Positions 2,892 through 36,741 of a DNA stretch of 64,000 bases are shown in pieces. This DNA comes from a virus. Positions within the stretch are counted from its first letter, which is position 1. Every line of letters begins with the position of its first letter. Made by a program: the position numbers and the translations under genes. The stretch is taken from the IMG/VR virus record IMGVR_UViG_3300025133_005699, positions 32,001 to 96,000 of that record, one strand, 5' to 3'. The notes beneath the pieces were generated by a model. It had not been told where the DNA came from. It searched no databases and saw only the letters and a program-made list of their open reading frames with translations.

Positions 2892-5800
2892 ATGTCAAAA
2901 TTCAATTTAACAGCGCAGTTGAGCTTGGCGCCTCCTACAAACGTTCCTCAAATAGTTAGGCAGGTTAATCAGCAGCTTCAGGGTATACAGATGCAGATTA
3001 ACCCTGTTGTTAATGCCAAATCTCTTAACCAAGCAAATCAGGCTGTTCAGAGGGTTGGAGTAAGTGCAAAGGTTACTTCCAAAAATCTAAATACTGCTGC
3101 CGGTTCGGCAAACAGTTTGGGTTCTGCATTAGGGGCGGCGGCTAGAAGGTTCGCCTCTATTACGTTGGCTACGGGTTTCTTCTTAGCCTTGACTAGAGCT
3201 CTAGGTTCTGCTGTTGGTAGGGCTATCGAGTTTGAGAAAGAGATGTTGAAAATTTCTCAGGTTACTGGTAAATCAGTGCGGTCACTTAGGGATCTCAGTA
3301 ATGAGGTAACAAGACTGTCTGGTAATCTAGGTGTATCCTCCGAAGAATTATTAAATGCTGCGAGAACTTTATCTCAGGCAGGTTTTGCTGCCGACAAGGT
3401 AACTGGGGCGTTGAAGGTTTTAGCTCAGACTGATTTAGCTGCTACGTTTGATAACATTAAAGACACGACAGAAGGCGCTATAGCTATTCTTAGTCAGTTT
3501 AGAAAAGAAGTTCGGGCGGCGGGCGGAGAAGTTCAGTTCTTAGAAATGGCTATGGACTCCATTAACGCAGTCTCTAAGAGTTTTGCTGTCGAGTCTGCCG
3601 ACCTTATCTCTGTGGTCAGAAGGACTGGTGGTGTATTCGAGGCTGCCGGTGGTAAGCTAAATGAATTGATTGCCTTGTTTACATCTGTTCGTGCGACAAC
3701 CCGTGAAACCGCTGATACTATTGCTACTGGTTTTAGAACTATCTTTACTCGTATCCAGAGGTCTGAAACTATTGATAGCCTTAGAGAGCTAGGTATTGTT
3801 CTTCAGGATACTGAGGGCAAATTTGTTGGCCCAATGCAGGCTATAGCGAGACTCTCTGCCGGATTACAAGCTCTTGATCCGAGAGACTTTAGATTTAATG
3901 AGATTGTAGAACAGCTTGGTGGATTCCGTCAAATTGGTAAGGTTATCCCTCTTATTAAACAGTATACCACGTCTACTGAGGCCTTAGCGGTAGCGAATAA
4001 CGCGATGGGTTCTACCGCTAGAGATGCAGGTATTGCTCAACAGGGTCTTGGCAACCAGTTTGCACAGCTGAAAGAAAAGTTTGATGCCACTGTTCGTTCT
4101 TTGGCTGATAGTGATACATTTCAAACCCTAGCCACATCGGCAATTAAAATGGCTGAAGCCATATTGAGAATTGTTGATGCCCTTGAGCCATTGCTTCCTA
4201 TGTTGACTGCTCTGGCGGCATTTAAGTTAGGTCAAATTGCAATTCCGGCGTTTGGTAAATTTGCCGGTATTAGCGCAAATGCGGGTGGTAAAATACACGG
4301 CTTCGCTGGTGGTGGTATGGTTCCCGGTCGAGGAAATAGAGATACAGTTCCGGCGATGTTAGAGCCCGGTGAGTTCGTTATGCGCAAATCCGCAGTCAAG
4401 AAAATTGGCGCGAACAATATAGCACAGATGAATAATGGCTATGCTGCGGGTGGTATTGTTACTGGGAGACGAAATAATTATGGTTTTAAGCCAAACAAAA
4501 AAACTTTTGATAAAGCCTTGACGCCGGAAGATAAAGCGCGATTGTTAGGTACGTCAGAATTGGCATCTAAAGAGACATCTGAGGACGCCAAAGTTTTAGC
4601 TGCTATTGGTAAAGCGAATGCAACTTATGGCCTATCTACAGGCACGGTTCCGGGTGGTTTTTCTCTTGACGCATCAACTAAGCAGGTTAAAGAAATAACA
4701 AGTGACAAGCCTTTAGGCAGCATCCCTCTTACCAAAATGACAGCTAAGGATTTTCAAATATTTGCCAAGGGCATTATGGCAAAAGTGCCGGGATCTACCA
4801 TTGATGATGTAGCTCAGGCACAGAGATCAGGCGTTACGACTAATGCAACCATGCAGGCTTCGTCATACCCTATTGCTTCTATTGTAGAAAGTGGTGTGAG
4901 GTCCCAAGTAGACAGCGATCTGCAAGCTAGTGCTGCGCAAGGACTAAAAGACTCTGTTGAAGAGACAATATCAAGATTACAGTCTAGTGACGCGGGTGCA
5001 ACCGTTAAGAATATGGGACTAACACTCAGTAGGGGTGCAGCACAACGAGCTGCGACAACCACCTCGAAAGATGAGCAAGCAGTTTCCTCGATGGTCGGGT
5101 TTTTGTTTGAGGGTGTTATTGATGCTATGTCGGGTGCAACACCTGCGGGAGAGAGAGCTAGTTTTGACTTACCAAGAGAGTCTGTAAGCTCAGCAAGACC
5201 TGAGTTAGTGAAATTGTTTGGTTCGCAGGCTAACCAAATGAAAATGGCCGAAGTCAAATCTTCTTTTGGAAAGCTATCCCAAATTCCAACAAAACTAAAA
5301 ACATTTATAGGCGAACAAAGCAAAGTAGGACAAAGAACAACGGGAATAGATTTAAAGCGTGTAGGCTTCGCCAAAGGAGGTAAACCAAAAGGCACAGACA
5401 CTGTTCCCGCAATGCTCACACCCGGTGAGTTTGTAATGAAAAAATCCGCCGCTCAGGGTATAGGTTATTCCAACCTTCATAGAATGAATCAATCTAATGG
5501 TGTTAATGGATATGCCGCCGGTGGTATTGTTACTGGGACAAGAGGGTTTTACGGGAATGGAGTGCCCGGTGGAGGCGCGTCTATAGGAACTATTCCCGGC
5601 ATAGAAAGCGCGTCTAAAGGCTTTACACAACTTGCTAAAAGTATAGGGGATCTTGTTGGACAGCTGATAAGAGCTGGCGAATCTATTACATTGGGCGCAA
5701 ATTCAGCGTCTGAAAAGCTGGTTCAGGGTGCAAATGTACTTGGGCCGGAACTCAGTCAGGCGGGTCAGGCATTTATAGGTTTGCCCGCAACGATTTTGAA

Positions 5801-8800
5801 CCTGTTGGATGATGGAGCAGTTCAGCTCGGAACTGGCCTAGCAGACGCCGCCAAAGGAATAGGCTCTATAGACAATATAATGATAGAAGCCCTTACGGCA
5901 TCATTAGCCCCTTTCACAGCAGCTATGGCAGATGCTTCCAAGGGAATTAGCGCTGTTGACAACATAATGAACACCACTATGACAGGAGCAATGGCACCAC
6001 TCAAAACATCACTGTCATTGCTTGATGGAGAATTTAAGAAGTTTGGTAAAGAGCTAATGCTTAAGCTCAAATATTTTGATATTTTAAAGAAAGCCAATAC
6101 TGATCTAGTTACCGTTATGAACGATCTCGGCAAGAAGCTTATAGAAAAGGGTGATGATTTTGACATATTGAAACCACCTATTGCCACTGTCGAGCAGGCA
6201 CTTATTAGGGTTTCTGGTTACCTGAACAACTTTTATCAGATCTTTACGCCACTTGCGGGGGCTGTGCGGCAACTTTCTGTCGCCATGCAGAATCAGGCGG
6301 GAACAATAGCTGCAAGCGGTGCAGGAGTTGCGGCAGGAGCGGGCGGTGCGGCACTACAGGGGCCCATGACTCAGCTAGCCGCGAACATGTCTAGGGCAGC
6401 CAAAATTATGAGCAATATTGCAATCATTGGTGCTAGCCTTCAGCGGGCGATGGCTAATATGGTTGCGTCCCTTAATTCGGGTAAAGGTAGTATAAATAAT
6501 ATAACTATTAATTCCGCAGCCACAGCTCAGGAATTAGCCGAGCTAAAGGCTGAACTAGCAAAGGCCCAAGCTAGAATACTAGAGTTGGAAACTGCCGCAG
6601 CGCAAGCCTCCACCCAAATGAAAAAGACTGGCGCTAGTGGTGGCGCAGCCGCCGGAGGCATGATGATGGGTGGTGGTGGTGGTGGTGGTGGCCAAATGGG
6701 GAACAACCTAATGATGGCGGGCATGGCGGCGGGGATGGTTGCCCAGAGCATGGACGGGCTGAACGACAAAACAAAAACTTTCGTGACAGATCTTACCATG
6801 ATTGGTATGATGTTGGGGATGGTTGCAATGTCCTTTTCTCCTATACTAGCGGGCCTGTTTGTACTGACTGGATCTTCGACCACAGCCGCTGCGGCACTTT
6901 CCGCACAGACTGCGGCGACAGCTGTTGAAGTTGCGGCATCTGAAGCGGCGACTTTAGCGAAAATGCAGGAGACAGGTGCCGGATTCTCCGCAGCCGCGAT
7001 AGATGCACAGAAAACGGTTGCCGGTGGTGCTGCTACCATAGCCGATAGACTCAAAACCGTTGCTGCCGCCGATGCGGCGAAGGCAGATGCAATGAAAGCC
7101 AGTGCCGCCATGCTGGCAGGCGGAGTTATGGCAGGTATGGCGATAGCCGCCACTTATGTTATAATGAGAAGTAAGGCGCTTGGTGAACAGGCGAAAAAGC
7201 TAACCGAGGAATATCAAGATTCTATAAAAGGGTTGCAGGAGGGTGGCGCAGGTACGAATCTCGCAGACGCTCAGGCTAAAGTTAGAGCTGCCCTTCAGAA
7301 AGAGGCAGAAGCCGCTGGGGCTACATTCAGTGGTTTCTTAGCGATGACGGCAGCGGCTATTGTAGTTGTCGTCTCTGCGATTGCCCTATTTATCGCGGGG
7401 GTTGCCACGGGTGGTCTGGCTTGGGCGGCTGCGGCAGCCATTTTTATTGGGGCGGCTGGAGCTGCTGGGGCGGAAATAGGGGCGGCGTTTGCAACGGCCG
7501 AGGAGGCGATAGGGGCGTCTACTGACGCTTTAGTAGCATCAACGTTCCATGCCGCCACAGCTCTGAACGGACTTACTGCGGCAAACCAAGCTATGGAACT
7601 TGAGCAGCTTAGCGGCGTTGCGTTAATGGAGAGACAAGGACAGGCTTTTGACGACTTCTATGCTTCTTCTCTCCAAGCCGCCGGAGCTATGGCGTCTTTT
7701 CAGGGGATGGAAGCTGGTATGGATCAGGAGTTCAGGGGTGAGATGATGGACTCAGACGTCTTTGAGGCCGTCAAGGATGGTGGGGTTGATGCAATGAAGG
7801 AGTTAAGTCAGGCATGGTTTAAAATGGCTTCCGACATGAAGAACGGCATGAATAGTGCTGTAGACGAAATGATTAAAGGTGGTAAATCTGCCAAAGACGC
7901 GATGGATAGCGCCGCAATACAGGGTCAGCTTAAAAAGTACGGAGCTGCCGTCGAGATGGCTACGCGACTCCAGATGATGATGAGCGGACTCCAAAAACAA
8001 GCAGCTAAACAGCAGCTGGGGCTTGCTGGCATGACAGACGCAGAAATGTCTCGGGCTCAGCGCCTTCAGGTGATGGCGAGGGAAAAAGAGCTTATAGATG
8101 CGCAATCCGCTGATACAGCTAAGAAAGCGTCAGCCGCTCAAGAAAAATCAATGCGGGACAGGTTAGAAGCTGAGGCAAAAGCGAAAAAGGCTGCGGCAGA
8201 AAAGCTCGCTGCGGACATAGCTCTCGCAAAACAGGCATATCGATCTGCTTTAGCGTTAAGCACGTTTGAGGTTGCCATGGTTGGGCTGAGCGGCGCGATG
8301 AGCATGGCAGATATGGAATTTGGGGCCCTTACCGGCAGTATAAAACAGTTTAAATCAGTTAACGATAAACTAATTTCCACCTTAGCCTCTGGAAATGTTT
8401 CTCCCGAGGCTGAACAAGCAGCAATGGCTACGGCTGGCCAATTTGGACTAGAGGGGGAGACAGTCGCTCTTATTCAAAAAATGAAAGATAACGAAAAAAT
8501 ACGAAAAGTATTGACCGAAAAGGGGATGGAGGCATTTAGTGGAGCACTTGAGGAGAGCGCAGCAAATTTAAGGTTTGATGAATTCATGAGAGATCAGGGT
8601 ATTGATCTGTCTGGACTTGACGCTGACATAAGAACAGAAATTATGAATATGCTAGAGGATGGGCTTCAGCCGGGCGAGATTGAAGAAATCATGAATAAAA
8701 TAAATGGCGCCAATGAAGAGCAGATAAAGGTGCTTGCGGAACTAGCCAAAGCACAGAATGATTATGTTGGTGCTCTGTTTAAATTTGGTGGTGAGGTAGT

Positions 8801-11800
8801 AAAGCTCAATGAACTATATGCTAAGGCTATTAGTAATGTAATTAGCGTCCAGCTAAAGGGAGCAGAGCGCCTAGCTAAGGCTCAAGGAAGAGACATGACC
8901 GTGGGAGATGTTAGGGCGGCAGAAGAAGCTAAAAGAAGAGCGCCATTACAGGCAAGAGGTCTTGTTGGAGGTGGAGTCGGCGCTACGCAAATACAGCTAG
9001 AAAGAAACAGACAGAAGGCTAGGGAGCTGGCCAATAGAGTTAAGGCAGAGGCTGAGGGCGGTCAAGACGCAGAAACAATAACCAATCTACAAAACGAACA
9101 AAAAAACCTAGCATCTGAGACCAACGCTCTTACGGAGAACCTTAAGAAACTTTCAGATCAGTCTAAGTTGGCCGCCGCCATTATGGGCGAGATAGATAAA
9201 GAAAAGGGAAAACGGGAGACAATAAGAGGTTTAATCTCCGAGTTTACCTTTGCTAGTAATCAGGGCCGGAAGGATATGGATAGGAATTTCATGGCTCTCC
9301 AGAGGGTGATGGAGACTGGGAGCTTGAATAGTATTCCGGACGAGATGAGGTCTGCTGTTGGAGGGTTATTAGGAACCCTTGAGGATATAGCGATTGGGCC
9401 ACAAGGTCAAACGGGTGGAGAAATCAAGAAGATGCTAGAGATGCAGATGGCTAACCAGCTTAAGATTAGAGCTACTGGTAGGCCGCTTACTGCGGAAGAG
9501 ATGCAGAGAATATTTGATAAAACAACAAAAGAAGAGAAACTTATAGATGACCTAAAAGCTCTTAATGCCGAAGAGGTTGCGGCGGCGACGGCTCTCGCTG
9601 ATCATCAAGCAGATAAGATTGACGACTTGTTGGTGGGAATTGAGAGACTCATTGCAACCCTAGAGGCTGCGCAAGCGAATGCTGGTAATGCGGCACAAGG
9701 TGCGATGCAGCAGATGCAGATACAAGGGCCTATGCATGGAGGGTTAATTCAGAGATTCGCAGAGGGTGGAACAACAAAAGCAGCAAGATATACATCGAGC
9801 AGTAAAAATATGTTCCAGCCGCGAGGCACAGATACTGTTCCCGCCATGCTTACTCCGGGTGAGTTTGTTATGCAGAAGAGCGCCGTGGATAGTATTGGGT
9901 TATCAACCCTAAGTTCTATGAATAGTGGCAAGAAGCCTATCTATAGGCAGGCGGGTGGTCCTGTTACGAGTTGGACGAATTTTAACCAAGAACAACTCAA
10001 TAAAGGTGTTCAGATATCGCCAGAATTACAGAAGATCCAAGACACTATTTTAAACGGTATAACTAATAGTATTAACAGTATCGATAAGTTAAATTTTGCA
10101 GAGCTTAATCCTGCGATTGATGGTAAAAAAATAATAGAGGCCGATACGGGCTGGCCGATGGGCGGAGCGAATTGGAAAAATTTTGAAATGGATACTGGGG
10201 CTGGCGGTGCTGTTTTTCTACAAAACGGTGCCTTAGCTAGGGCTGCGCTAAACGATAAGGCGAAGCAGGGGATTAAGGCGTGGAGTCTGCTGGCAACCCC
10301 TCTTGGTGCAATCAATGACCCCCTTCTGATGGCAAACCTTATGTTACAAAAATATGAGGGAAAAGATGCTGCTAGAGCTATCCAAGCCCATAGATTCTTT
10401 TACAATAAAACATATCCGAATGGTGGCCGCATAGGAAACAATAAAAACACGCTCGCTTATGACTGGTGGGATATTGACGAAAATACTGGGACTCGTAATA
10501 CGCTAACGGCTCTTGTGACCTCTTCAAGTACAGACGACGATACGATTCAGGGGGATATTTCAGGTGGCCTTATTCAAAGCGTAATGGGTTCTGGGCAGAT
10601 TAGGGACTGGTATAAGGATGGTGGAACAGGCGACTTGGGCTATAAAGATCTCGATAATGTTAAAAATGTGGAACGCACGGGCCCAGCGATGGCAAATATA
10701 TTTAAGCAATATACCGAAAATTCTACATGGCCATGGAAATCACATTCTTCAGATCTATATGGAGGGACTAGTGTAGCCGGTATAAATTATGGACTACCCT
10801 ATCCTCCTAGCGAAGAACGTGGATTAATAATTCCAAACCGAGCAACCGCCGGAACCCTTATGGGTAATCCGGGCAAGCAACAGTTTCAATGGTTGAGTGG
10901 TTCTCGTTTTAGGGGGACCAAGTCTGTAGAACAAAACGAAGAGTACTACCGCGCTTTGCTTAAGAGTGGGGAATTTAATGATGTGAAAATGCCGCTCTTC
11001 GTTATAGATCAGCTTGCTGGGGGAGCTATGAAGTCCGCATCTTCTGCTTATGGTAGCTTTTTGCACGACAATTTATTTAACGAAGCAATGCAGGGTCAGC
11101 TTAAAGAGTTTTATACAGACCCAAACGCGGCGACCGCAGAATTTCAAATGGGCAACATAGCCAACGCACTTACAAATGCCGCATATGGTAACTGGTCGGG
11201 TACACCCAACGCACAGGCTATGCTCAAAGTTGATGGTGCGATATCCGCAATGCCAAACTTTGAGCTAGATACGGCTGCAAAATCTGGGTTTACTGGCGGG
11301 CCTTTTGGAGACACTGAGGTAGCAAAGGCCTTTAAGGGAAAAGTTGGATACATTCCTTGGAGTCTTCAGCATGAGCCAGTGTTAAATCGCGGACTACTAC
11401 AGAATCTTATGGACATGCAGGCGAATGCCACGGGGAGACTCGCCGCAGCTAACAACATAACTAACGGTTGGGGCGCAGAGTTCACAAACCTTTGGAAGAA
11501 TAGCGACGCTGAAAATAAAGGTCAGTCGGCGGAATTTCTCGCAACAAAGATTTCAGAGCTTTTTAATAAGATAGAGGGAGGAAATGATGTTTGGGGAGCA
11601 CCTCTTTTGGGTGTCATCAAACAACAACAAGAAGCCGCTGCCGCCGACGCAGCAGCACAAGAAGCCGCCGCTGTGGAAGAGGTTGAAGGTAGGGTCGTGC
11701 CAAATCTAGATGTTTTCTATGGCGGTGATGCTCAAAAAGCACAGGCTTTACTGACGGCTCTTGGAGAATATCCGGGTCGCGACAAAGCACCAAAAGGTAT

Positions 11801-13559
11801 ATATCGAATGCCAGCATACTCAGGATTACGCGGAGAGGAGGGTGTCATTGATGAAAAAACGGGCAACCCAAGGCGAATCTTCGCCATAACAGATATCAAG
11901 CGTAATAAAGATCATTTTGATGCAATGTTCCCGTTCTTTAAGGAACTCAGTAACGAGATTTTGGGTATGGCAGGACAGGGCTATATTACGTCAGCTTCTA
12001 CGGATGGAGGTGTTGGGTTTAATCCACAGAAAATGGCAGACCTTGGCGGAGGAATAGGTGGGGCGAGTAGGGATGCTCTAGCGCGTTGGTCAACGCTGGA
12101 GGATGTATCCAGTTGGTATGGTAAAGACGGACTCCCAGATAGAGAAGCAGAGAAGATGATTGGCCTGTTTTGGAATTTTAAAAAGGTAAACACAGCTCTT
12201 AAAAAGATGCAGGGAAATGCACGAACAGCAATGCGAATGGCTGAGGAGCAAAATAACGGAATGTGGGCTAGATCTGGCCTGTTTGGTGGCGATGTCAAAA
12301 ATTATCCAGACTGGCTGAAACCCGCACAAAGAAATCAACCAAATCAACGACCAAACCAACAGCCAAACCAACCCCAGCAGATTCCCCAACAAAACGCACA
12401 AGGCCAAGCATTCGCAACAGGTGGCCCAGTAGGAATAGACTGGTCTCCAAGAGGAACTGACACCGTTCCCGCGATGCTAACACCCGGCGAGTTTGTTATG
12501 AAAAAATCCGCCGTAGACAAGTACGGCATAGGCTTTATGGCTGCTATTAATGAAGGCAGAGGAGGTTCTGGAGGATATATGCACGAAGGTGGTGTTGCTA
12601 GTGGTAGTGTTTCACAGTTTGGCCCACAAGAAGACTTGCGTATCGATAGAGTGTTAAGCAACACGAAAACAACCTCCAACACCGTTAAGAAGATAGCGGG
12701 CATGATAACCAATGTGGACAATAAAACCACTAATCAGGAAGACCTATTAAATAGTTTTAACACAATGAGTGAAGCTGATTCGGCACTTTCCGCCCAAATC
12801 CAGTCGGGACTCTCCGCCATACTCAATCAGCGAATAGACCTCCCCGAAGATCTTGGTGAGGGTATTGTTGGTCGTCTAACAGGTGAATTTTTGGCTCAGC
12901 TTGGCACCCTCAGACAGGAGATGGACACAGAGCATACAGACCTAAAGAAACAAAATCGACGAATGCTGAAGCGGACGCGGGGGAATTTCGGTATATTGGC
13001 AGGCGCCATACCAGCAATGATGAGACCTTTTAATCCGGCGGGACCCCCTCAGTTTATGGCCACGGGAGGTATGGCTAGAGGAACCGACACTGTTCCCGCA
13101 ATGTTAACTCCCGGCGAATTTGTAATGAAGAAAAGCGCTGTTGATAAGTATGGCGTAGGCTTTATGAGAAGCCTTAATAATGGTGCCTCTCCTACATCAA
13201 GGTCAAGAGGTGTACAATACCTTAAAAATGGAGACTTGGCAACATCGGGTGGCGGAAACCTCTTTGCGGGGGTCGGAGATATTGTTTCTTCAATTAGTGA
13301 CTCTTTATCTGCCTTTACTCAAGCTTTTAGCTTATTTAGTGGGCTTTCTAACCTGCTAAGCAATACAATTAATAGTATGGCAGACATGAACATAACCCAT
13401 AATATTAACATTAATGGAAGCGTAAACATTCCGGGCTTCTCAAAGAGGGCAGTCAAAAAGATAATTAACGCCGTAGTTGAAGAGGTTGTTGATGACGTAG
13501 ACGCGAAGATAGACCAAGCTTTTGCAGAGCGAGACAGGAACAACGAGAACAGAACATAA
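2892..13559 (+). CDS. Tail tape measure protein, 3555 aa, multi-module
   Basis: N-terminal TP901-type TMP core (AIEFEKEMLKISQVTG, LSQAGF, TIATGFRTIFTRI, LRELGI), long Ala/Met-rich helical regions, hydrophobic TM-like stretches (~6790-6870, ~7325-7470), GAGGAG RBS and typical gene position. Confidence 0.92.
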   Translation: MSKFNLTAQLSLAPPTNVPQIVRQVNQQLQGIQMQINPVVNAKSLNQANQAVQRVGVSAKVTSKNLNTAAGSANSLGSALGAAARRFASITLATGFFLALTRALGSAVGRAIEFEKEMLKISQVTGKSVRSLRDLSNEVTRLSGNLGVSSEELLNAARTLSQAGFAADKVTGALKVLAQTDLAATFDNIKDTTEGAIAILSQFRKEVRAAGGEVQFLEMAMDSINAVSKSFAVESADLISVVRRTGGVFEAAGGKLNELIALFTSVRATTRETADTIATGFRTIFTRIQRSETIDSLRELGIVLQDTEGKFVGPMQAIARLSAGLQALDPRDFRFNEIVEQLGGFRQIGKVIPLIKQYTTSTEALAVANNAMGSTARDAGIAQQGLGNQFAQLKEKFDATVRSLADSDTFQTLATSAIKMAEAILRIVDALEPLLPMLTALAAFKLGQIAIPAFGKFAGISANAGGKIHGFAGGGMVPGRGNRDTVPAMLEPGEFVMRKSAVKKIGANNIAQMNNGYAAGGIVTGRRNNYGFKPNKKTFDKALTPEDKARLLGTSELASKETSEDAKVLAAIGKANATYGLSTGTVPGGFSLDASTKQVKEITSDKPLGSIPLTKMTAKDFQIFAKGIMAKVPGSTIDDVAQAQRSGVTTNATMQASSYPIASIVESGVRSQVDSDLQASAAQGLKDSVEETISRLQSSDAGATVKNMGLTLSRGAAQRAATTTSKDEQAVSSMVGFLFEGVIDAMSGATPAGERASFDLPRESVSSARPELVKLFGSQANQMKMAEVKSSFGKLSQIPTKLKTFIGEQSKVGQRTTGIDLKRVGFAKGGKPKGTDTVPAMLTPGEFVMKKSAAQGIGYSNLHRMNQSNGVNGYAAGGIVTGTRGFYGNGVPGGGASIGTIPGIESASKGFTQLAKSIGDLVGQLIRAGESITLGANSASEKLVQGANVLGPELSQAGQAFIGLPATILNLLDDGAVQLGTGLADAAKGIGSIDNIMIEALTASLAPFTAAMADASKGISAVDNIMNTTMTGAMAPLKTSLSLLDGEFKKFGKELMLKLKYFDILKKANTDLVTVMNDLGKKLIEKGDDFDILKPPIATVEQALIRVSGYLNNFYQIFTPLAGAVRQLSVAMQNQAGTIAASGAGVAAGAGGAALQGPMTQLAANMSRAAKIMSNIAIIGASLQRAMANMVASLNSGKGSINNITINSAATAQELAELKAELAKAQARILELETAAAQASTQMKKTGASGGAAAGGMMMGGGGGGGGQMGNNLMMAGMAAGMVAQSMDGLNDKTKTFVTDLTMIGMMLGMVAMSFSPILAGLFVLTGSSTTAAAALSAQTAATAVEVAASEAATLAKMQETGAGFSAAAIDAQKTVAGGAATIADRLKTVAAADAAKADAMKASAAMLAGGVMAGMAIAATYVIMRSKALGEQAKKLTEEYQDSIKGLQEGGAGTNLADAQAKVRAALQKEAEAAGATFSGFLAMTAAAIVVVVSAIALFIAGVATGGLAWAAAAAIFIGAAGAAGAEIGAAFATAEEAIGASTDALVASTFHAATALNGLTAANQAMELEQLSGVALMERQGQAFDDFYASSLQAAGAMASFQGMEAGMDQEFRGEMMDSDVFEAVKDGGVDAMKELSQAWFKMASDMKNGMNSAVDEMIKGGKSAKDAMDSAAIQGQLKKYGAAVEMATRLQMMMSGLQKQAAKQQLGLAGMTDAEMSRAQRLQVMAREKELIDAQSADTAKKASAAQEKSMRDRLEAEAKAKKAAAEKLAADIALAKQAYRSALALSTFEVAMVGLSGAMSMADMEFGALTGSIKQFKSVNDKLISTLASGNVSPEAEQAAMATAGQFGLEGETVALIQKMKDNEKIRKVLTEKGMEAFSGALEESAANLRFDEFMRDQGIDLSGLDADIRTEIMNMLEDGLQPGEIEEIMNKINGANEEQIKVLAELAKAQNDYVGALFKFGGEVVKLNELYAKAISNVISVQLKGAERLAKAQGRDMTVGDVRAAEEAKRRAPLQARGLVGGGVGATQIQLERNRQKARELANRVKAEAEGGQDAETITNLQNEQKNLASETNALTENLKKLSDQSKLAAAIMGEIDKEKGKRETIRGLISEFTFASNQGRKDMDRNFMALQRVMETGSLNSIPDEMRSAVGGLLGTLEDIAIGPQGQTGGEIKKMLEMQMANQLKIRATGRPLTAEEMQRIFDKTTKEEKLIDDLKALNAEEVAAATALADHQADKIDDLLVGIERLIATLEAAQANAGNAAQGAMQQMQIQGPMHGGLIQRFAEGGTTKAARYTSSSKNMFQPRGTDTVPAMLTPGEFVMQKSAVDSIGLSTLSSMNSGKKPIYRQAGGPVTSWTNFNQEQLNKGVQISPELQKIQDTILNGITNSINSIDKLNFAELNPAIDGKKIIEADTGWPMGGANWKNFEMDTGAGGAVFLQNGALARAALNDKAKQGIKAWSLLATPLGAINDPLLMANLMLQKYEGKDAARAIQAHRFFYNKTYPNGGRIGNNKNTLAYDWWDIDENTGTRNTLTALVTSSSTDDDTIQGDISGGLIQSVMGSGQIRDWYKDGGTGDLGYKDLDNVKNVERTGPAMANIFKQYTENSTWPWKSHSSDLYGGTSVAGINYGLPYPPSEERGLIIPNRATAGTLMGNPGKQQFQWLSGSRFRGTKSVEQNEEYYRALLKSGEFNDVKMPLFVIDQLAGGAMKSASSAYGSFLHDNLFNEAMQGQLKEFYTDPNAATAEFQMGNIANALTNAAYGNWSGTPNAQAMLKVDGAISAMPNFELDTAAKSGFTGGPFGDTEVAKAFKGKVGYIPWSLQHEPVLNRGLLQNLMDMQANATGRLAAANNITNGWGAEFTNLWKNSDAENKGQSAEFLATKISELFNKIEGGNDVWGAPLLGVIKQQQEAAAADAAAQEAAAVEEVEGRVVPNLDVFYGGDAQKAQALLTALGEYPGRDKAPKGIYRMPAYSGLRGEEGVIDEKTGNPRRIFAITDIKRNKDHFDAMFPFFKELSNEILGMAGQGYITSASTDGGVGFNPQKMADLGGGIGGASRDALARWSTLEDVSSWYGKDGLPDREAEKMIGLFWNFKKVNTALKKMQGNARTAMRMAEEQNNGMWARSGLFGGDVKNYPDWLKPAQRNQPNQRPNQQPNQPQQIPQQNAQGQAFATGGPVGIDWSPRGTDTVPAMLTPGEFVMKKSAVDKYGIGFMAAINEGRGGSGGYMHEGGVASGSVSQFGPQEDLRIDRVLSNTKTTSNTVKKIAGMITNVDNKTTNQEDLLNSFNTMSEADSALSAQIQSGLSAILNQRIDLPEDLGEGIVGRLTGEFLAQLGTLRQEMDTEHTDLKKQNRRMLKRTRGNFGILAGAIPAMMRPFNPAGPPQFMATGGMARGTDTVPAMLTPGEFVMKKSAVDKYGVGFMRSLNNGASPTSRSRGVQYLKNGDLATSGGGNLFAGVGDIVSSISDSLSAFTQAFSLFSGLSNLLSNTINSMADMNITHNININGSVNIPGFSKRAVKKIINAVVEEVVDDVDAKIDQAFAERDRNNENRT
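4341..4397 (+). repeat. TMP internal module copy 1 (DTVPAMLEPGEFVMRKSAV)
   Basis: Read directly from the translation, aa ~484. Confidence 0.9.
5397..5453 (+). repeat. TMP internal module copy 2 (DTVPAMLTPGEFVMKKSAA)
   Basis: Read directly from the translation, aa ~836. Confidence 0.9.
9831..9887 (+). repeat. TMP internal module copy 3 (DTVPAMLTPGEFVMQKSAV)
   Basis: Read directly from the translation, aa ~2314. Confidence 0.9.
12459..12515 (+). repeat. TMP internal module copy 4 (DTVPAMLTPGEFVMKKSAV)
   Basis: Read directly from the translation, aa ~3190. Confidence 0.9.
13086..13142 (+). repeat. TMP internal module copy 5 (DTVPAMLTPGEFVMKKSAV)
   Basis: Read directly from the translation, aa ~3399. 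Confidence 0.9.
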
Positions 13560-16500
13560 TGGCAACAAAATCACTACATATACAGAATGATCAGACCGAC
13601 GATGCTGGTGTATACCAGCGTAACAGGGGTGCGGATCTTTTTATGGAAGCTCCCGGCGGAATTCAGCAGTTTACAAACTTTGACGCCAAAGTTACGTCTT
13701 ATAACAATAGTGGTAACGAGGTCAAAGCGGGATTCTTTGATAGCCCATATAGATATAGGGAAGTGTTCAGAACATACGGCAACGCCACCAATATGCCTTT
13801 CGAGTATGAGAATGGCCAGTACTCCCCAAGCGACATAAAGATTCTTGATGATATAGCTATCGTTGCCTATAAAGAGCATAGCCAATCAGTTTATACTGTT
13901 AATCAGGAACTAGAAGGCGGGCATGTCATTATAAAAGTTACATATGAAAAGACTGGCGAAAAGGTTGAAGCTTTTAGAAGTGTTGATCTTAATAGCGGGT
14001 TGGTCATTCCGGACCTTGGAACCGCAGCTAGAAACTTAACGGAGTTTACTGGTAGCAACGAGATACCGGGCACTAATGCTGGCATAAATGCTGGATATAG
14101 TATTCAACCTATTGGAGATGTTGCTGATGCTTTGGGGATAGGTCCGACTACTGAGAGTGGAAGTACTGGGCCATGCGCTGATGGTTTAGTAGGGGATACT
14201 TGGACTTGGAATATGTCCGAAGAGGAGCCGGGATGGACAATAACCTCTCCGGGGGAATGTGCAGCGGCAGGGTGCGGCAGCCTGCCTCCTGCTTATGAGG
14301 GGGGGTCTGATCTTGAAACAGGAGTAGGGCGTTGTGGTGTGGATGATACGATTGTATATGATCCGTTTGTATCCGATGATGATATCCCGAAGAAGGTTAA
14401 CGAGGGGGTTCAAGGTTGCGCAGGTCCGACAATGCCCGCAGACGCACTAGAGAATAAAGACAGCGCAATATTCTTCAGTCAGGTAAAGAACAAAAAGGGC
14501 GAAATTATTGACGTTCTTCAGGGGCTTGTGGTTGATTTTACACACGGTTCAACACCTGATGACGCAACACTGTTAAGCCTCAAGAGCATGTCTAATGCTA
14601 ACTTGATATGGGTAGATGAGTGCTCCGCCGATTACGTGACTTACTATTATAAGGTTCCGGTCCCGCTGTCAGGTTACTACTACCAATACGGACAGAAGAC
14701 CCAGTGCGGAAGAGTGGATATTTTTGAGCGGCGTAGCGGGACTATAACAGCTGTTGACGGGAATAAGATTACGGTAACAGGACCAACTGGAGATGGTGAG
14801 TTTGATATTCATCTGCTGAATGACTACGATAGAATTAAAATTGTTTCTGGGGTAAACGAAACTAAAAAAGATCACCCCCATCCTATTAACGGAATTAAGT
14901 ACGTTAAACGACTTCCTGATTTGTATAATTCTGAAACAGAGAAATATGATATCCCTGTGGATAATCAGTATTATATATATGATGATGAAAACTTAACAAT
15001 GGAAACAGAGACCTCGTCTCTTAGGGGTACCGATGGGCTACTATGGGCTTTTCAGCCGGACGACCCTAACTCTCGCACCGCAATGCCGTGGAGCACCGCT
15101 GGTTCGAACAAAGGCGCAGTTGGGGTTTGGAGATATAAGCAAACATTGTTTTCCCCTCACGGCCTCAACGGAGATGGTGTGATATCTCGCGGGACTACAC
15201 CCTATATAAACGCGATGGGCATAGCGCCAATATCTGATTATGGGGGTGGATATGATGGCGCAATGGAGGACGATATAGAAAGAGTCAGCGATATTCGCAA
15301 TGCTATGCATTTAATGGCGTGGGGATATAGGTTTGGTCAGGCAATAGATATTATAAAACAGCCCGGCACAGATTATTACTGGCTTGCTATTAGCGAGCTG
15401 GGGAATATAGCCAATGCAGATAGTGGAATGACTTATTTTGGGGAGATTCAGACTGTTACTGGCATGAGCCCTGTAGTTAACGTTCCGACTTACGATGAGG
15501 AGGGCAAAATTAACGGATATATAAAACGAGGTATAGGTCTACAAGCAGCTATTGACTTCGGTCTAGATCCCACAACGAAGGGGCTAGCCACGATATTTAT
15601 AAATCATGAGACTGGTAAATATGATCAATCTATCGACTGGAACAACATAGGAAACTATTCTTACGGCGGGTTCGAGGATGATATAAAAAGCGCGAAGAAG
15701 GGTATAACCACAACTATTGTTTCTCCCTTTGGGTATCAATCCGTTCCGCCACTTAGCAAAGGATATGGGAAGGTTTGGCTTTACAAGGTAAGCATGAATA
15801 GTGCTGACTCTGCTATTCAGGCAATAGAAACCCCTGAGGAGATTAATGCGGGAACAAGAAATGGTCACGTTTCCTCAACTTCCGTTTTTACAAGGCGCCT
15901 GATGGATGTGTTCGCAACGGTCGGAGGTTTGTACTGGTTTAGAGCATGGATTTCTAACCTTAAGGCTGGACTGACTGGGTCGCCAAAACATTTCAAGACC
16001 CATAGAAGTAATGTCAACACCGGCAGTTTTGGCACCACGGCTTCTGATCAAATCCATTATAATTTTGGATACCCCGAAAGATGGGCACCTTCATGGATAG
16101 ATGGAGACGAAGACGAATATGGAAATCCGGGCGGATTTGATTCGGGTACGGGTGCTGATCTGCCCGACGGCGGTATGATGGGCGGCATGGGTATGGGCGG
16201 TGACGGTATGGGCGGTGACGGTATGGGCGGTGACGGTATGGGCGGTGACGGTGGCGACGGAGTCGAACCTGTCAGTCGTTCCGCTGGTACAAACCTATTG
16301 TTTGTTAAGTCGCAGAAGTTCGTAGCTGAGCTAATTACATATCAAGAAGAGTTCTCAAAAACGTGGGGCGATTCCGACGGGGGTGTTGATTTGTTTCGAG
16401 AATGGGTGATTCCTTATTATAGGACTAACGAGTCTCCGTTTCACCCCTATCAAACATCCATGAATGCCATGACTAATGGCTTTAAATTCGCTGACGGGTT

Positions 16501-19500
16501 TGGCTTTAATATATGTATGAAGGTTGACGATATTACAGATGGAAATAAGCCAATAATAGCTATTGCAAATACGGTATTCCCATATTTACCCAGTATTAGT
16601 AGAACGGCGGACGCTGCCCTGCAATCAATGCAGCAAGAATTAGATAGGCTTAAAAGGAGGGGGTATGAAGACGCAAACACTCAGAGCTTTATAGACAGAC
16701 ATACCAAAACGAATGAGTTTATTACAGACTTTCTTAGTGATGGAAGCGGAGAAGCTATAGATCTTGCCAGTATGGCTAGAAATGGATCAATTTTCATACA
16801 TAATTGTAACCAGCCGGTAAATACTCAGGAGTTAGACTACACGTTAAGAGTCTCCCGGATGGACGCTATCCCCGAAGACCCTCGACTTGGTTGGCTAAAT
16901 AAGAAATATCAAGGAAATTATTTTTATGAGTACAACTATTGGTATAGCGATCCCCCATCGATGATGTTTAGAGATGGGTCACTTCTTGTCGGCACAGATG
17001 AGGGTCGAATTAAAGTGTTTAAAGAGGAGTCTCTATCAACGCATAGATATAAAGCTAAACGGATGCAGAACTATCCGACTCAACACAGTAGGTTTATCAC
17101 CATTGGCGGCGTTGATTACCTTCTTCCAGAAAATAAAGCGGCTGGGGGCTTTGCGGGGGGTATGGATACGGGCCAGAGCATAATGGACGGCGATATGGGC
17201 GGTGATATGGGCGGCGGCATGGGCGGCGGCATGGGCGACAACAGCTATATACCAGACACACCCGTAGAGGGTTCGGGCTATAAGTATTTTACCGACGAAG
17301 AGAAAAAACACATGAAGAAAGGCTTCTGGGCGAATAACGGGATGCTCGGCGATAGCGGCACCTCCGAGGGGGATGTGGATTATCTCGATACGTGGGTATG
17401 GAACGCGGGCCCGGGTGGCTACGACTACATGATAGACAGCGGTGTAACTGGATGGGCCAGCCTCCAGAGCCTCCTCGACGCTGGGCATGGCAGAGAAAGT
17501 TATGCTCCCGCTGGTTTTGTACCAATGATAACGGAAGATGATAAACCGGCAGATTATGTTTCCGTTTATCGCAATTACTCTCACTACTATATCAATCCTA
17601 CTAGCGATGTTCTCACGACCCCTATTATGCCAGTGGGTGAACGTTTCATGCACACAGCAACCATATCCAAAGACAGGCACCCTGCTTATACTCTTGAGAA
17701 CCAGAAAGACCCAAGGGTTCTACCCAAAGACGAAAGGAATATATTACTTGGTCAGCCTTTTGGGTATCTATTTAGATGTGATAATGGACTTCTCGTTACT
17801 CACGGAGCTTCTTATACTAACGAGTTTGATATTGAGGGCAAGAGTCTAGCCCATAGGTTATATCTATACGAGGTAAATAAGGATGGGTTTTTTGACTTCT
17901 TCCAGAAGATAACTCCGGCTACTAGCAATATGGCCAATGGGCTTATTCCCACAAACGGCATTCAGAATAAATACAATAGAGATGGCAATACTACTAGATA
18001 TCGCACATTAGATATTCCAAAAGAATCTGTACCAAATTATGTCAATATCTTTCCCGAAGGATCTATAACTTTTGAAGAGAAGATAGAAGAAAGCAGAACA
18101 ATAGCATACCTAATGAAAAATATGTATGACGTTCTGTCTGGGATGGTGGTATTGATGACTCCTTACGGGAATGCCGTATTTAGCGATAGCGGAGCCTCTA
18201 AGAGCTATGATTTTATTAGCGACCACAGAAGCTCTCAGGTGTCTCCGTATTTCTCATTCACAGAAGAGTTTAATGCAAAAAATCCATATAACCTTAACAA
18301 TATGTACTCATATCGTGAGGGTCTTGGCATTGATTACCCCGCAAATATCTATGATGTAAATGATGAGCATAGCGGCCTATGTGCCTTCTATAACATAGAA
18401 ACCAGCTCATCACAATATAACTCAATTAGAATATTAAAAAGTGTAATATTTACAATTGATGTAGAAGAAAATACCACCCTTAAGGGTGCGGATGACTCTG
18501 ACATTGCACAAGTTTTGCCGATTTTAACATTCTATAAAGACGACCCTAGAAAGACAATAACACAAACGGCAGTTGCTGATGCGATGGGGGGCGGAACCAA
18601 GCTGCCTTATGGGCCTAATTCGGTTTACAATCCTAACTCGCCACACAGCCCTCTCTACGCCGATGGACTTCAAGATAGCGCAGCCCTAATAAAATATCCT
18701 ACTTATCGCAGAACCAGTGTTGCTGGAGATCAGGGTTGGCGCGCAACAGTAGTCATAGATGGGCCTACTCTGTCCGCTCTTTCCGCGCATGGGTCGTTAA
18801 TTAAGAATTCTAACGACAACAAGACTATTCTTTATAATGATGGAAATGGATATACAGATGGGTCTTACAGTCAAACGTTTGATGATGTAAACAAAGCTAG
18901 CTTTGATTCTAGGGCTCAGGTTGAAAGCACTTTAGTTGTAGGTCTGATGTCTCATAACACTCAAACTTCAGACTTTGACGGAATCTATAGAACGAAGTGG
19001 GTAGCTGGGGACGAGAATAAAGGAACGTGGGGTCAAGAACTTAACTATATCCCATACAGTAAGCCATTTGATATTTCCTCCAACGTGCACTCATTTATAA
19101 ATAAAGCTAAAATATCATCCGTTAAGCTTGCTTACAATGACTATGATCTTGGAGATATAAGGAGGTTTCGGTGTGCATCTTTCCGTGAGAATCAACACTC
19201 ACCATCTGTTTTTTTTACGCGCCTTGAGGGAAATGATGCTCCGACAAAATTTGCACAGCCGGGCACTGAAGGGTTTTTAAGAATGGGAAGATCTAAAACC
19301 CCTGCGCTTTTTGATATAGAAGGTACAGTTCTTGGTGGCACAAATAGTGAATCTATACAGATAGTACAATCTGCTAGTTATGATTTTTGGGGTGAATGGG
19401 CCGTTAATTACGTTGCGGATTACGTTAGTCACTCTTCAGATATTCAAAAACCAGAGTTCTTAAGTCTCTCAATATACTCTGCACCCCAAAGCTCTAAAAG

Positions 19501-22500
19501 CTTTAATATGTCAACATCTGGTCATGTTGTTTCTAGTGGATTGGCTCCTACTTACATAGGCGGTGTCGCGAGTCATTCTGATAGTATGCCACTCAAAATT
19601 GGATCTACTCCAGCTGTGAATTATCTGGGGTTATCTCTTCCTGTTCCGCTTGGATTTAGATGTGGCGGAACATCTCTGTTTACCCCAACAGCATTTGGTA
19701 ACACCATAGTTAGCGGTATGTCGGCTCAATTTCCGGGCGGAACTGGCGTAAATAAAGGTGTGGCGCTATCTGTAGGTATGCCTTATAGTAGTGGAGGAAT
19801 GAGGCTTGCAATGGGTCAGCCACATTTAGGTAGTGGCAATATGAATGTTGCAATGTCTGGAGTGTATGGCTCCTATAATAGCATACCATGCATAGAGGGG
19901 AATTTATATCTTAACGCTACTCATGTCGATAACGCCAATATACCTTTAAACTTAGGTAGGCTTTCAGATAGTGGAAATATGCCACTATACATGAGAACAC
20001 CAGACCCTGCGTCCGGAGTCATGAACCTAACCATTAATACAGAACCATTTAATAGCAATAACGCTTCATATCCATCTGGGCTTCATCTTCACCAAAAGGG
20101 GTTTGCAGAAAAGACAGCAAATACAAGCCTGTATATTGGTGAGCAGGCTAGTGCGGGCTCTGCACCTCTGTTCTTAATGCAGCCACACAGGCTTCCGTTT
20201 ATAGACCCACAGTCACCGCCAACATTTGAGGGTGATGACACAATGCAGATACCCAATCTTTATGTGTCTGGAGCCGCTGTTCCTACTGCTAATAGTTTAG
20301 ATGATAATTTTCATCATCAAAAACAGATCGTTCGGGAAAATTCACAGCTTGACTATAGCTCTAACGCAGAGTCTATTATTTCTTACAATAGCTCGAACTC
20401 TCTATCTAGGAATGCATTTATTCCAAACGGGTCACATGACTATGGCGTAAAAAGGATTTCTAAAGTCGGAAGCAGTCTAGAAAGCTATAACGGGTTGGGC
20501 ACAACCTCTTTCTATAACAATGAAATGTCTAGGCAGGCAATAGATTCAAATGGAACATATTTAGCGGTTGGCACGAATTCTAGCCTCGTGTCCAATATGC
20601 CACCTTTGCAGATTTTTAATATTTTAGATGAAAGCTCTGTCAAGTTAGCATATACATACACTGAGTTTAAGGAAGACCTTGTAGATTTGAGCATTTCTAA
20701 TGCTAGTGAGGTTATGTTTTATTATAAAGACGTTAAGATCTCACCAGAAAATAAAATAGCAGTTTCCGTAAGGGCTCAGTTTAATGAGTATATTTCTGAT
20801 ATGATATTCATATTAGAGGAAAAAGCGTTCGATAGATTATCAACAACAAAAAATGCTTTTGATGAGTGCGCAATAAAGCCTCAAAAAAGACTTAACGTTA
20901 CCATCGAATCTTTCAAGAGGTGGAAAATCACATCAGCATTTACTTCTAGCTCTTGGAAAAAAACGACCAGCGTAGATAAGATTCTGAATAGGGTTATGGG
21001 CGAATCTATATCTTGGAAGGGTGAAGACCTATACTACGGAAAACAAAGTACGCGGTTTGCCAATATTTACGCTAGGTATGAATCGGATGATTATGCAACA
21101 GAAAACAAAGCGTTTGGATTCAACCAGACGCGCGACGCTGCGGGATACAACAGCAATATAAACAATATACCAGCAGGAACAAAAACTGGATTTGGATCAA
21201 AAATTCAGCTTGCGGGAGACTTCGCTTTTGTTGGTGCTCCACTGCTCGACCCATACATTGCAAACAATAATCTTTCTGCTGTTAATGCCGCATCGCCAGA
21301 TGGAGCCGTTTACATATTCAAATATGATAGTGGGTGGTCGTATGTTGATGCAATTTATAGTGGCGGATTAATCTCTTCTGCTATTGCAGGAGTGGATAGT
21401 TGTGCTTATGATGCAAAACTGTTTGGTTATGATTTAGATTATGATTCTAAGTCTGGATACCTATCTGTGGGTGAACCAATGTCTAATACAGTATATCAGT
21501 TTAATATCAACGCTGCGGGAACGCCTTCGCTATTGAATTCTTACTCTAGTACAGACAGCAAGTTTGGAACTTTTGTTAATTCTGTATCGGCAGGACTGAT
21601 AACAAATACAAAGTCTAAAATACAAGATGTAGTATATTCTCAAGATTTTGAGTTCTCAACAGAAGAAATAGAATCCGAAATTCAGCAATATGTACCCGGC
21701 ATCAATGTTATAAACAGCGTTTCTCACGAGATAGTGTCAGTCCAGAAGGCTACCCTTATCGGTGAAGAAAAGCTATTGGTGACGCGAGATTTTGAGGTCA
21801 ATTACGGTGCTGGAAGAATCAAGAAAATACAAAAGATATCACTCTTGGACCTGCGAGATATAAACGGCACGCTGTATATCTCTGGCCCATCACCCGTTTC
21901 TGATTCACTAAACCTAAGTGTTCTCATTCCTTCGGGAGGGGCTACTGGAGATTTAGGTATAACATTCGGGTCAATCGGGACTGGCGTCGCGATGCCATTA
22001 CATCTAACTAATTATATTGGTAGTGGAGAAGCTCCTCTATATATGAGGGCACCATTACAGCATCCTCAAACCCTCTATATGAGCGCTGACTTTACACCGG
22101 CTACATCAGAGTCTTCATTAGTTACGGCAGGGCCACTTTATGCTAGCAACGCTTCTGATCTTAGTATTGAGGGCAAAACTGCTCGGGACTTGTCTTCCTC
22201 AGTATTTGTTCTTGGGGGAAGAGAAGGGGGCGGAGGAATGGCTCAAATGGGCGTGAATATGAGGATTGCTCAGGTTGATCTTTATCCTACATCTGGCCAG
22301 CAAGATGTTTTAATTACTGGTATCGGACATGGAACCGGAAATATCACGGGCAGTCCTTCTCTTTGGCTTGGTGCTGGGGATTATGGGCCTGCTAGCGGAA
22401 CAACCTTCATGAGAATGGAAGCACCTCCATCGGCAGAGGTTAGTGCTTCTAAAGGCTTGGCAATCATTACAGATCCCGCGTCGGGAGTAGCTGAGAACAC

Positions 22501-35195: not shown

Positions 35196-35969
35196 TTATG
35201 ATCTCCAATTCTTGTTATAGCCCAGTATGTTTTCAGGTATAACTTGCTGTTTAGTTTGATACTTGTTAAGGACTCCGAGCATTGCGGCAGCTTTGGTTTT
35301 CTCCACTATCTCAATTGACTCATAATCGCCCTCTCCAGAATTTACAAACTTCATGACATTGATATCTAGTTGTCTACACTTGTTATCAATAAAATTAATT
35401 TGTGAAGAGCTTACAATAGCGCCTTCATCCCATTCCCCATCGGTGGGGTTATCCTTTTGTACACTTTGTTGAACAATAGATACAATATCTTTTCTTGCCA
35501 ATTCCTCAGCAGCTAAACATCGCACCTTTAATGCTTTTCTAAGTGCCCTTCCTTCTGCTCGCGTACTCGCTGTGGCAACAGGGTGTGCACAGAATAAATC
35601 ATCTGTGTTCCCATGCCATACGTCTGCAACTTCCTTAAAAACCCTTAGCTCTCCAGAGTTCATCCAGTTGAAAACAACCTTATAAACTACCGTAGCTCTT
35701 CCGGGCCCATTTCCGTCCATAGCTGGAAAAACCTGATCGGGGCCAGACTCAATTACGTCACCAAGCAATAGCTCAGATACACGTCTTAGTCCAGCACAAA
35801 TAGGGTTTTTGTCTATCAGCTCATTCCTTTGAAAATGTGACATCACATAATCGCTCCAACCTTCACTACCGTAAGCTACTGCGTCTGAATCCGTTTCCTC
35901 TTCTGGAATCAAAACATCTTCGGTAATACTATCAACATCAAATAATTCTGTTTCAACTTGCTCTGGCAT
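35196..35969 (-). CDS. Putative Rad52/Sak-like single-strand annealing protein
   Basis: ATASTRAEGRALRKAL helix preceded by RATVVYKVVF..EVADV strands. C-terminal SSQINFI helical domain. Likely start MPEQ at 35969. Confidence 0.45.
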   Translation of the reverse strand: MPEQVETELFDVDSITEDVLIPEEETDSDAVAYGSEGWSDYVMSHFQRNELIDKNPICAGLRRVSELLLGDVIESGPDQVFPAMDGNGPGRATVVYKVVFNWMNSGELRVFKEVADVWHGNTDDLFCAHPVATASTRAEGRALRKALKVRCLAAEELARKDIVSIVQQSVQKDNPTDGEWDEGAIVSSSQINFIDNKCRQLDINVMKFVNSGEGDYESIEIVEKTKAAAMLGVLNKYQTKQQVIPENILGYNKNWRS

Positions 35970-35970
35970 A

Positions 35971-36741
35971 TCAACAAATCTCCAATTCAATAAGTCTTTT
36001 GTTCTTAGATGGGAATTTTTTCTCTACTTGCTGAAGAACAGGTTCAACAAGTTCCCACAACCTTCTACCAACCGAACGGGTGAACGTAGGGCATAGGTAC
36101 TTTACTCTAATTACACAATAGCCTCTTTTGACAAGAACGCCATTCTTAATTATATCGTGTTTTACATAACCCCGTAACATCTTTTCTCCAAAAACTGGCT
36201 CAAAGTGTTGGGGCCCATCTACCTCTATTATAGTCGAAAGCTCGGGCAAAAACAAGTCCATTTCATATTTTGTACCTTCTATTAGGTCTTTTTTATGAAG
36301 GATAACTTCCCTGCCTGATGCGTGAATTTTTTCATAAAGGAGTCTTTCGGGCTTTGAACCTTCCTTGATTGTTAGCAATAAAGCTTTAGCCGCCTTACTG
36401 CGTAACTCCTCCTTGTCGTGGTCAGACATGTTTTCCCATTGCTCTTTAGCAAGGGCAGATCTGCGTTTACGTTCTTTTTTTGGCAAGTCCGCCCACGCCT
36501 TTTCCAGACTGATACTAATTTTATCTTTAACCTTTTCGGTTCTAGTCTTTCCCTTTGTTGGGTGGGAATGTCTACCAGACTTTAAAGCCTCTTTTTGAGC
36601 CTCGCTTTTGCTGCGTAACTCAACACCATTAGATATTAACACTCTGCGTATTTTATTGGGATACGTGTCAAAGTTATCTGCAATGGCTTTCGTGCTTAGG
36701 TTATTTTTTGTATACATTTCTATTACTGTTTTTACGTCCAT
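35971..36741 (-). CDS. Homing-type endonuclease: HTH + NUMOD3-like + DUF559/Vsr-like domain
   Basis: KGKTRTEKVKDKIS (NUMOD3-like), SKPE, YEMDLF, IEVDGPQH, GYCVIRV. Confidence 0.7.
   Translation of the reverse strand: MDVKTVIEMYTKNNLSTKAIADNFDTYPNKIRRVLISNGVELRSKSEAQKEALKSGRHSHPTKGKTRTEKVKDKISISLEKAWADLPKKERKRRSALAKEQWENMSDHDKEELRSKAAKALLLTIKEGSKPERLLYEKIHASGREVILHKKDLIEGTKYEMDLFLPELSTIIEVDGPQHFEPVFGEKMLRGYVKHDIIKNGVLVKRGYCVIRVKYLCPTFTRSVGRRLWELVEPVLQQVEKKFPSKNKRLIELEIC

Follow-up and report, generated by a model that had tools for sequence, protein, structure and literature searches.

The window analysed here is a 64,000-nucleotide stretch of DNA (positions 32,001 to 96,000) of the IMG/VR virus record IMGVR_UViG_3300025133_005699, a 105.8-kb sequence that is estimated to be 65% complete. 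The open reading frame (ORF) that heads Table 1 is the tape measure protein (TMP) gene of a large uncultured tailed phage. The PF10145 (PhageMin_Tail) model matches amino acids (aa) 137-341 of the product with an E-value of 1e-23 and a score of 84.3 bits, against a curated cut-off of 33.2, and several PHROG TMP families also match its N-terminal part; a whole-gene megablast of the ORF against cultured phages gave no match. TMPs are usually seen as rulers and channel formers. The protein encoded here is probably built from conserved ends, a long helical, membrane-inserting body and three exchangeable cassettes, which are joined by five copies of a junction module.

Table 1. Segments, modules and cassettes of the tape measure gene (nucleotide positions are those of the window; TM, transmembrane; L006 is the closest relative in IMG/VR).
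Feature	Position (nt)	Strand	Residues (aa) and remarks
Tape measure protein ORF	2892..13559	+	3555 aa; PF10145 and PHROG TMP families
S0, conserved N-terminal core with PhageMin_Tail	2892..4301	+	1-470
Module 1	4302..4463	+	471-524
Cassette A	4464..5366	+	525-825; replaced in L006 (DNA about 40% identical, against 99% in the flanks)
Module 2	5367..5534	+	826-881; crossover inside its core
S2, long A/E/K/Q/L-rich segment	5535..9755	+	882-2288; kept in L006 (92-97% aa identity)
Gly/Met-rich region with TM-like helices, within S2	6780..7460	+	1297-1523; hydropathy scan
Module 3	9756..9968	+	2289-2359
Cassette B	9987..11606	+	2366-2905; divergent allele of a rare conserved domain family
Q/A-rich linker and segment B2	11622..12410	+	2911-3173; 98% aa identity to L006
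Module 4	12411..12602	+	3174-3237
Cassette C	12603..13055	+	3238-3388; replaced in L006
Module 5	13056..13241	+	3389-3450
S5, C-terminal tail	13245..13559	+	3452-3555; 61-96% aa identity across most of the clade

A sequence-only reading of this DNA had described the motif DTVPAML(T/E)PGEFVM.KSA as occurring five times between aromatic-x-x-GG brackets, in copies that differ mainly at synonymous positions, and this observation is confirmed in every detail that could be checked. The motif is present exactly five times, at nucleotides 4341, 5397, 9831, 12459 and 13086 (aa 484, 836, 2314, 3190 and 3399), and the brackets flank every copy (FAGGG..YAAGG, FAKGG..YAAGG, FAEGG..YRQAGG, FATGG..YMHEGG and MATGG..YLKNG). 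Over the 18-codon core, 92 of the 180 pairwise codon comparisons differ, with 81 synonymous against 11 non-synonymous changes. Moreover, the longest exact nucleotide matches between paralogous copies extend to 8-18 nt. Because synonymous differences prevail and the exact runs are this short, the copies are old and have been kept by selection on the protein; the module core is under purifying selection. Conservation at the protein level amid synonymous differences rules out chance as the origin of the copies, and the saturation of those differences rules out a recent tandem duplication. When the phage's own genome was searched for the module, it was present in the TMP ORF only.

Each module is 55-70 residues long; two Gly-rich brackets enclose an extended core (DTVPAMLTPGEFV) and, after it, a short amphipathic helix. 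No model for it was found in Pfam or NCBIfam. Among proteins with solved structures, a profile built from the five copies found lambda gpH and mycobacteriophage Douge gp16, both of them TMPs. The lambda protein carries one copy at residues 733-784 (E-value 7e-5 against 8iyk_H in the PDB sequences, 23.7 bits in a direct search), the Douge protein carries two by the same comparison of the profile with PDB sequences, and the module residues are unresolved in both virion structures. An AlphaFold2 (AF2) prediction of the module alone, made with 62 aligned copies, reached a predicted local distance difference test (pLDDT) score of 58 and contains one helix that follows the extended core. Judged by this model, the module does not look like an autonomous domain; a single helix with an extended chain would agree with folding of the motif within a complex.

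A search of 1.84 billion representative proteins with the module profile returned 16,697 matches, each standing for a protein cluster, at E ≤ 1e-3, of which 788 reached E ≤ 1e-30. The best 150 of the 16,697 are all TMPs of 2100-7900 aa with 3-10 copies each. When these 150 proteins are taken together with the TMP of the window, copy number is correlated with TMP length (r = 0.79), the first module starts at about residue 516 and the last one ends 130 aa (median) before the C-terminus. In the window, module 5 ends 104 aa before the stop, which fits the lambda-like place at about 60-130 aa from the C-terminus, modules 1-4 being extra. A tblastn search of cultured phages with one copy from the window found 171 places in 169 records, and the actinophage form of the module is present in 505 cultured phage records, about 96 of which have two places. 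The statement in the sequence-only reading that a related motif is usually single-copy thus holds for cultured phages, in which it is nearly always single, and fails for the giant metagenomic TMPs with their 3-10 copies. At the upper end stand two metagenomic TMP-like proteins, P0002 (7794 aa) and P0003 (7872 aa), with 9-10 modules.

The segments between the modules are exchanged among TMPs that are otherwise nearly identical. The closest IMG/VR relative (L006) encodes a TMP of 3575 aa with five modules, and the DNA of the two TMP genes is 97-100% identical except in three blocks of about 40-50% identity, at about nt 4425-5395 (block A), 9995-11621 (block B) and 12585-13050 (block C). Block A extends from the C-terminal half of module 1 to the core of module 2, block C extends from the C-terminal bracket of module 4 to the N-terminal bracket of module 5, and block B starts just past module 3 and ends at the Q/A-rich linker. 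Five of the six block edges are found at module edges. Fast divergence in place was rejected as the source of these blocks, since the flanks keep their 97-100% identity at synonymous sites as well and the edges are sharp. At the protein level, S0 is 98% identical to its counterpart in L006 and 76-93% identical to those of the wider clade.

The three cassettes differ in how far they have been replaced. Cassettes A and C show no detectable homology to the corresponding cassettes of L006, and cassette B is 35% identical in amino acids to its counterpart (E-value 5e-90) between flanks of 97-100% identity. A search of viral contigs for further relatives of cassette B found three other contigs only. 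Its alleles are 23-37% identical yet keep many invariant residues, a pattern that points to a folded domain with a function and not to filler. Cassette C is 78% identical in amino acids to that of P0006, a TMP with a backbone that is about 45% identical.

This pattern is also seen beyond the first pair of genes. In an independent pair with six modules (L009/P0007) the same slots are replaced. Throughout the clade defined by ≥85% identity in the N-terminal core, the sequences in the slots that follow modules 1, 3 and 4 share 0-44% identity or are unrelated, the full-length members have 5 or 6 modules, and the C-terminal tail remains 61-96% identical, two incomplete sequences excepted. Indeed, among 31 non-overlapping close pairs drawn from many sources, 42% of 112 breakpoints are no more than 15 aa away from a module edge, where random positions would give 9.2%, a 4.6-fold enrichment. 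The inter-module segments do vary among close relatives, the point that the sequence-only reading had proposed to check. The block edges of the first pair, the like behaviour of the second lineage and the enrichment across the 31 pairs together bear out the suggestion of a recombination junction with swappable segments, and the reading of the modules as junctions between swappable cassettes is strongly supported. In the manner of a delivery protein, a variable part is exchanged on a conserved carrier. A large survey was unable to confirm any genuine recent mosaicism in TMPs (PMC10684548); in the gene described here such recent mosaicism is clear.

Several observations weigh against the modules as dedicated crossover points. 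The right edge of block B lies at the linker and not at a module, about half of the breakpoints in the family fall away from modules, and the 31 close pairs are not fully independent phylogenetically. The enrichment of breakpoints at modules could be a matter of mere local DNA conservation. Furthermore, the genomes of the window and of L006 are mosaic outside the TMP gene too.

Enzyme domains are found beside modules in relatives. Two of them, P0204 and P0227, contain an ADP-ribosyltransferase (ART) domain that scores 39 bits with PF03496 (cut-off 23.4) and has STS and ExE motifs. In P0204 this domain (aa 923-1135) lies N-terminal of the Gly-zipper/TM region and fills the cassette between the modules at 816-868 and 1147-1205, and P0233, with a backbone 90-99% identical to that of P0204, has unrelated sequence in the ART slot. 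Because a phmmer search of the PDB sequences with P0204 matched nothing, the ART assignment rests on the Pfam match and the STS/ExE motifs. In the Douge-type TMP of mycobacteriophage Chaser (gp16) an NlpC/P60 match at 1296-1332 lies between modules at 965-1012 and 1414-1460, and in gp159, a hub/TMP-like protein of cyanomyophage S-SCSM1, a module at 602-649 is followed by a glucosaminidase domain at 697-816.

Two sets of side observations belong with these proteins. Weak ART-like BLAST matches (28-31% identity, E-values 1e-4 to 4e-7) were seen in the first inter-module interval of P0002 and P0003 and also in P0057, P0084 and P0011. S-SCSM1 is a T4-like Synechococcus phage; its gp159 (L097:4177-7029) is a 950-aa virion protein that is annotated as an endolysin and encoded among baseplate-hub and tape-measure genes, its module ends 48 aa before the glucosaminidase, and the gene that follows, annotated as a TMP, has a VanY carboxypeptidase domain.

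The sequence-only reading had also given labels to the segments of the TMP. Its 'TMP core' coincides with the PF10145 match, and its 'TM-bearing region' is borne out by TM-like helices at aa 1297-1337, 1405-1426 and 1474-1523 in a hydropathy scan. By composition and hydropathy, the A/E/K/Q/L-rich body of S2 and its hydrophobic TM-like stretches are those of a TMP, and TMPs of relatives have Gly-zipper Pfam matches at the place equivalent to aa 1297-1523. The 'nuclease-like' label for aa 525-825 found no support in Pfam, PHROG, PDB phmmer or Atlas searches, and L006 has unrelated sequence in this slot; the label was dropped. For the 'globular' label of aa 2360-3173 the only model is an AF2 prediction of cassette B from four sequences, with a pLDDT of 38.

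From sequence considerations, cassettes A, B and C of the window are most likely host-interaction or effector payloads. The idea that the modules separate effectors stands for the relatives, where ART, NlpC/P60 and glucosaminidase domains lie beside modules, and finds no counterpart in the window, where the cassettes match nothing known. No recognisable toxin or enzyme domain was found in cassettes A, B and C in Pfam, PHROGs or PDB sequences, the PDB sequence searches with cassette A, cassette C and S3 (cassette B together with B2) returned nothing, and an Atlas look-alike search with cassettes A and B gave no lead. Since the cassettes are without a recognisable domain and the AF2 model of cassette B is unusable, a payload role is putative for the window. 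Moreover, only 2 of the 120 relatives listed carry ART, and Pfam found no enzyme domain in 11 other multi-module giants, where the matches were to PhageMin_Tail and, in one, to a C19orf12-like model. Both results count against the payload reading.

The gene neighbourhood of the TMP was also examined. The ORFs around it (366-2786 and 13559-34743) gave no significant Pfam or PHROG match. Among them a 3087-aa ORF (13559-22822, + strand) begins at the TMP stop codon; relative to the L006 contig its DNA is 72-79% identical over the first ~3.6 kb and about 90% identical thereafter, and it is less conserved than the TMP backbone. At ~34000 in the window the genes change strand and the GC skew changes sign, with the tail genes on the + strand before this point and - strand genes after it. 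A long co-oriented run of sugar-modification genes follows at 35196-53243 (- strand, 10 of the ORFs scanned), including a DegT-type aminotransferase (38623-39780), a GT10 fucosyltransferase (39777-40703), an NAD epimerase/dehydratase (44735-45721) and several GT1/GT4 glycosyltransferases (45714-46760 and 49473-53243). A DnaE-type DNA polymerase III alpha is split over two - strand ORFs (54087-55655 and 56549-58126), with PHP and NTPase domains in one and finger and HhH in the other, and a 229-aa ORF (55630-56319) sits between them.

What the modules might do in the virion is best approached from lambda. There gpH is cut after tail assembly, in a Gly-rich C-terminal region, into gpH* (~78 kDa) and gpHC (~14 kDa), and the last about 30 residues of gpHC bind gpI (PMC12617516). 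Computed from the lambda sequence, the published masses of the two products fit a cut at about residue 710-726, in a Gly-rich run and 7-23 aa N-terminal of the lambda module. With a cut at this position, the module would be the N-terminal part of gpHC. The position of S5 after the last module matches that of gpHC, and S5 is on this ground the probable tip-binding end of the protein. In T5, pb2 is cut into pb2* and pb2C, between a hydrophobic stretch and the muralytic C-terminal piece pb2C, which is freed at infection; the release of an enzyme by cutting of a TMP thus has a precedent.

By analogy, these data support a processing or hinge role for the module. Of the suggestion that it is a processing, docking or threading signal, the processing part gains indirect support from the lambda module, which lies just past the mass-implied cut of gpH. 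Two points weigh against such a role. The module profile, when searched against PDB sequences, did not match pb2 of T5, the other TMP shown to be cleaved, and the argument for putative proteolytic processing at the modules comes from a single system, lambda.

The preferred reading, in which conserved ends, a membrane-inserting body and exchangeable cassettes are joined by the modules, can be put as a mechanism. In the virion the module may act as a flexible hinge or docking node that is folded only in the assembled oligomer, and it probably marks a place at which the TMP is open to cutting once the tail is assembled, as in lambda. With such cutting, each cassette could be housed in the tail tube and come out of the virion at infection as a unit of its own. 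In the DNA, the conservation of the module and its place at domain borders would make it a preferred crossover point, and cassettes could pass from phage to phage while the parts on which tail assembly depends are left intact. With the C-terminus at the tail tip, the first to exit would be cassettes C and B, and cassette A, adjacent to the DNA, would be the last. In relatives, the position of the ART domain N-terminal of the TM region would fit an enzyme that needs cytoplasmic NAD. Overall, the sequence-only reading is partly supported: well for junctions and cassettes, in relatives only for effectors, and by analogy for processing.

The main rival holds that the modules are purely structural repeats, which serve as register nodes, tube-lumen contacts or chaperone-binding sites, and that the cassettes are length-keeping filler exchanged neutrally. 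We regard this as doubtful, and think it possible rather than probable that exchange is neutral and occurs at the modules because they alone have DNA that is conserved well enough for diverged phages to recombine there. The lone module, with no autonomous fold in AF2, would suit a structural repeat, and the low-confidence model of cassette B consists largely of helix. In composition the cassettes are only moderately unlike the ruler parts, and TMP length stays at 3477-3883 aa in the full-length members of the close clade despite the block changes. Most giants are blank in Pfam, and the genomes are mosaic elsewhere as well. However, enzyme domains occupy module-flanked cassettes in three separate lineages. 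In addition, two lineages show independent replacement of the same slots, with S0, S2 and the C-terminus kept at 90-99% identity, and the invariant residues of cassette B persist across its divergent alleles.

A second alternative is that of a full polyprotein, cut at every module into six independently acting ejected proteins, with the module as a protease recognition or self-cleavage site. A repeated conserved site between distinct segments, as in a polyprotein, is indeed present. Gly-rich brackets accompany every copy, the ART domain of P0204 ends right at the bracket of the next module, the lambda module lies immediately past the mass-implied cut zone, and the cut in T5 pb2 does free a muralytic piece. 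Nevertheless, this alternative appears unlikely. No protease domain was recognised by Pfam or PHROG in the TMP or in the scanned neighbouring ORFs, and a cut after module 1 would part the N-terminal core from the remaining TMP. The D-T of the core is not conserved in the lambda or Douge modules, and a catalytic role for it is therefore unlikely. The core resembles GDSMxPxLxxGDxV, the motif of S24/S26 Ser-Lys peptidases. An S24/S26 peptidase-like or self-cleaving module was rejected: it has no Pfam match even at E ≤ 10, the Thr/Ser is not conserved in lambda, and 55-70 aa are too short for a fold of about 130 aa, of which the AF2 model contains none.

It is very improbable that the mosaic pattern is an assembly artefact, in which the repeated modules served to join metagenome contigs into chimeras: every close relative comes from a metagenome assembly, and orthologous modules that are identical over >70 nt between strains could confuse an assembler, yet the junction of module 4 with cassette C recurs in three other datasets, on contigs that are 85% identical across 12435-14142 and differ in cassettes A and B, the same pattern is present in the 31 pairs, paralogous modules share only their short exact matches, and the module-enzyme-module layout is found in cultured phages.

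A very common and so far unnamed TMP element, iterated up to ten times in giants, marks the borders of cassettes exchanged among nearly identical phages. The module is a specific candidate for what determines the cut in gpH, which is directly testable in lambda and in mycobacteriophages. The cassettes would form a large pool of uncharacterised virion-delivered domains, with at least one ADP-ribosyltransferase among them, and may shape host range, entry or counter-defence; a module profile would help to delimit TMP domains in annotation. In its strongest form the proposal would make the module a general determinant of post-assembly TMP processing, including the long-sought signal for the conversion of gpH to gpH* and gpHC, and the giant TMPs true polyproteins in which each module is both a cut/release point and a crossover point. 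We consider this extension improbable. If true, phages would hold in the tail tube a chain of injected effectors that is ready for recombination (ADP-ribosyltransferases, wall hydrolases and many others), and delivery would follow a fixed order, before the DNA and along with it.

TMPs with embedded or processed domains are already known, and the protein described here would, on sequence grounds, be a variant with a repeated junction module. One close parallel is lambda gpH, in which the FATGG...GEFV...helix...YATGG layout recurs within the single module; the last module of the window is about 100 aa from the C-terminus, as in gpHC. In contrast, gpH has one copy where the window has five, lambda is without the D-T-V-P core residues, and variable cassettes or cargo domains are not described for gpH. 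T5 pb2 is likewise a TMP that is cut during tail assembly, between membrane-inserting and enzymatic parts, whereas it has a single cut, no repeated junctions and no match to the module profile.

TM4-type mycobacteriophage TMPs carry embedded cell-wall hydrolase motifs, and in the Chaser/Douge gp16 type two modules flank the NlpC/P60 match. The mycobacteriophage proteins differ in having one or two copies and a length of about 1400-1700 aa in the two examined, and their modules are not described as junctions in the literature searched. MuF-type polymorphic toxins are effector carriers with swappable toxin ends. Sle1/Tme are TMP-like effectors of contractile injection systems (PMC13277306), and TMP-related effectors with reconfigurable domains have been reported. 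With both of these groups the present family shares a conserved delivery part and exchangeable functional domains, as in the presence or absence of ART on near-identical backbones. It differs in that the variable units are internal, number several per protein and have a repeated module on both sides, and in that the carrier is a genuine virion TMP; for a lytic virion protein, a neighbouring immunity gene would not be expected. Finally, the sharp DNA-identity breakpoints at domain borders of otherwise near-identical genes recall the mosaicism of tail fibre and receptor-binding genes, whereas here they lie inside a TMP, at a dedicated, repeated junction sequence.

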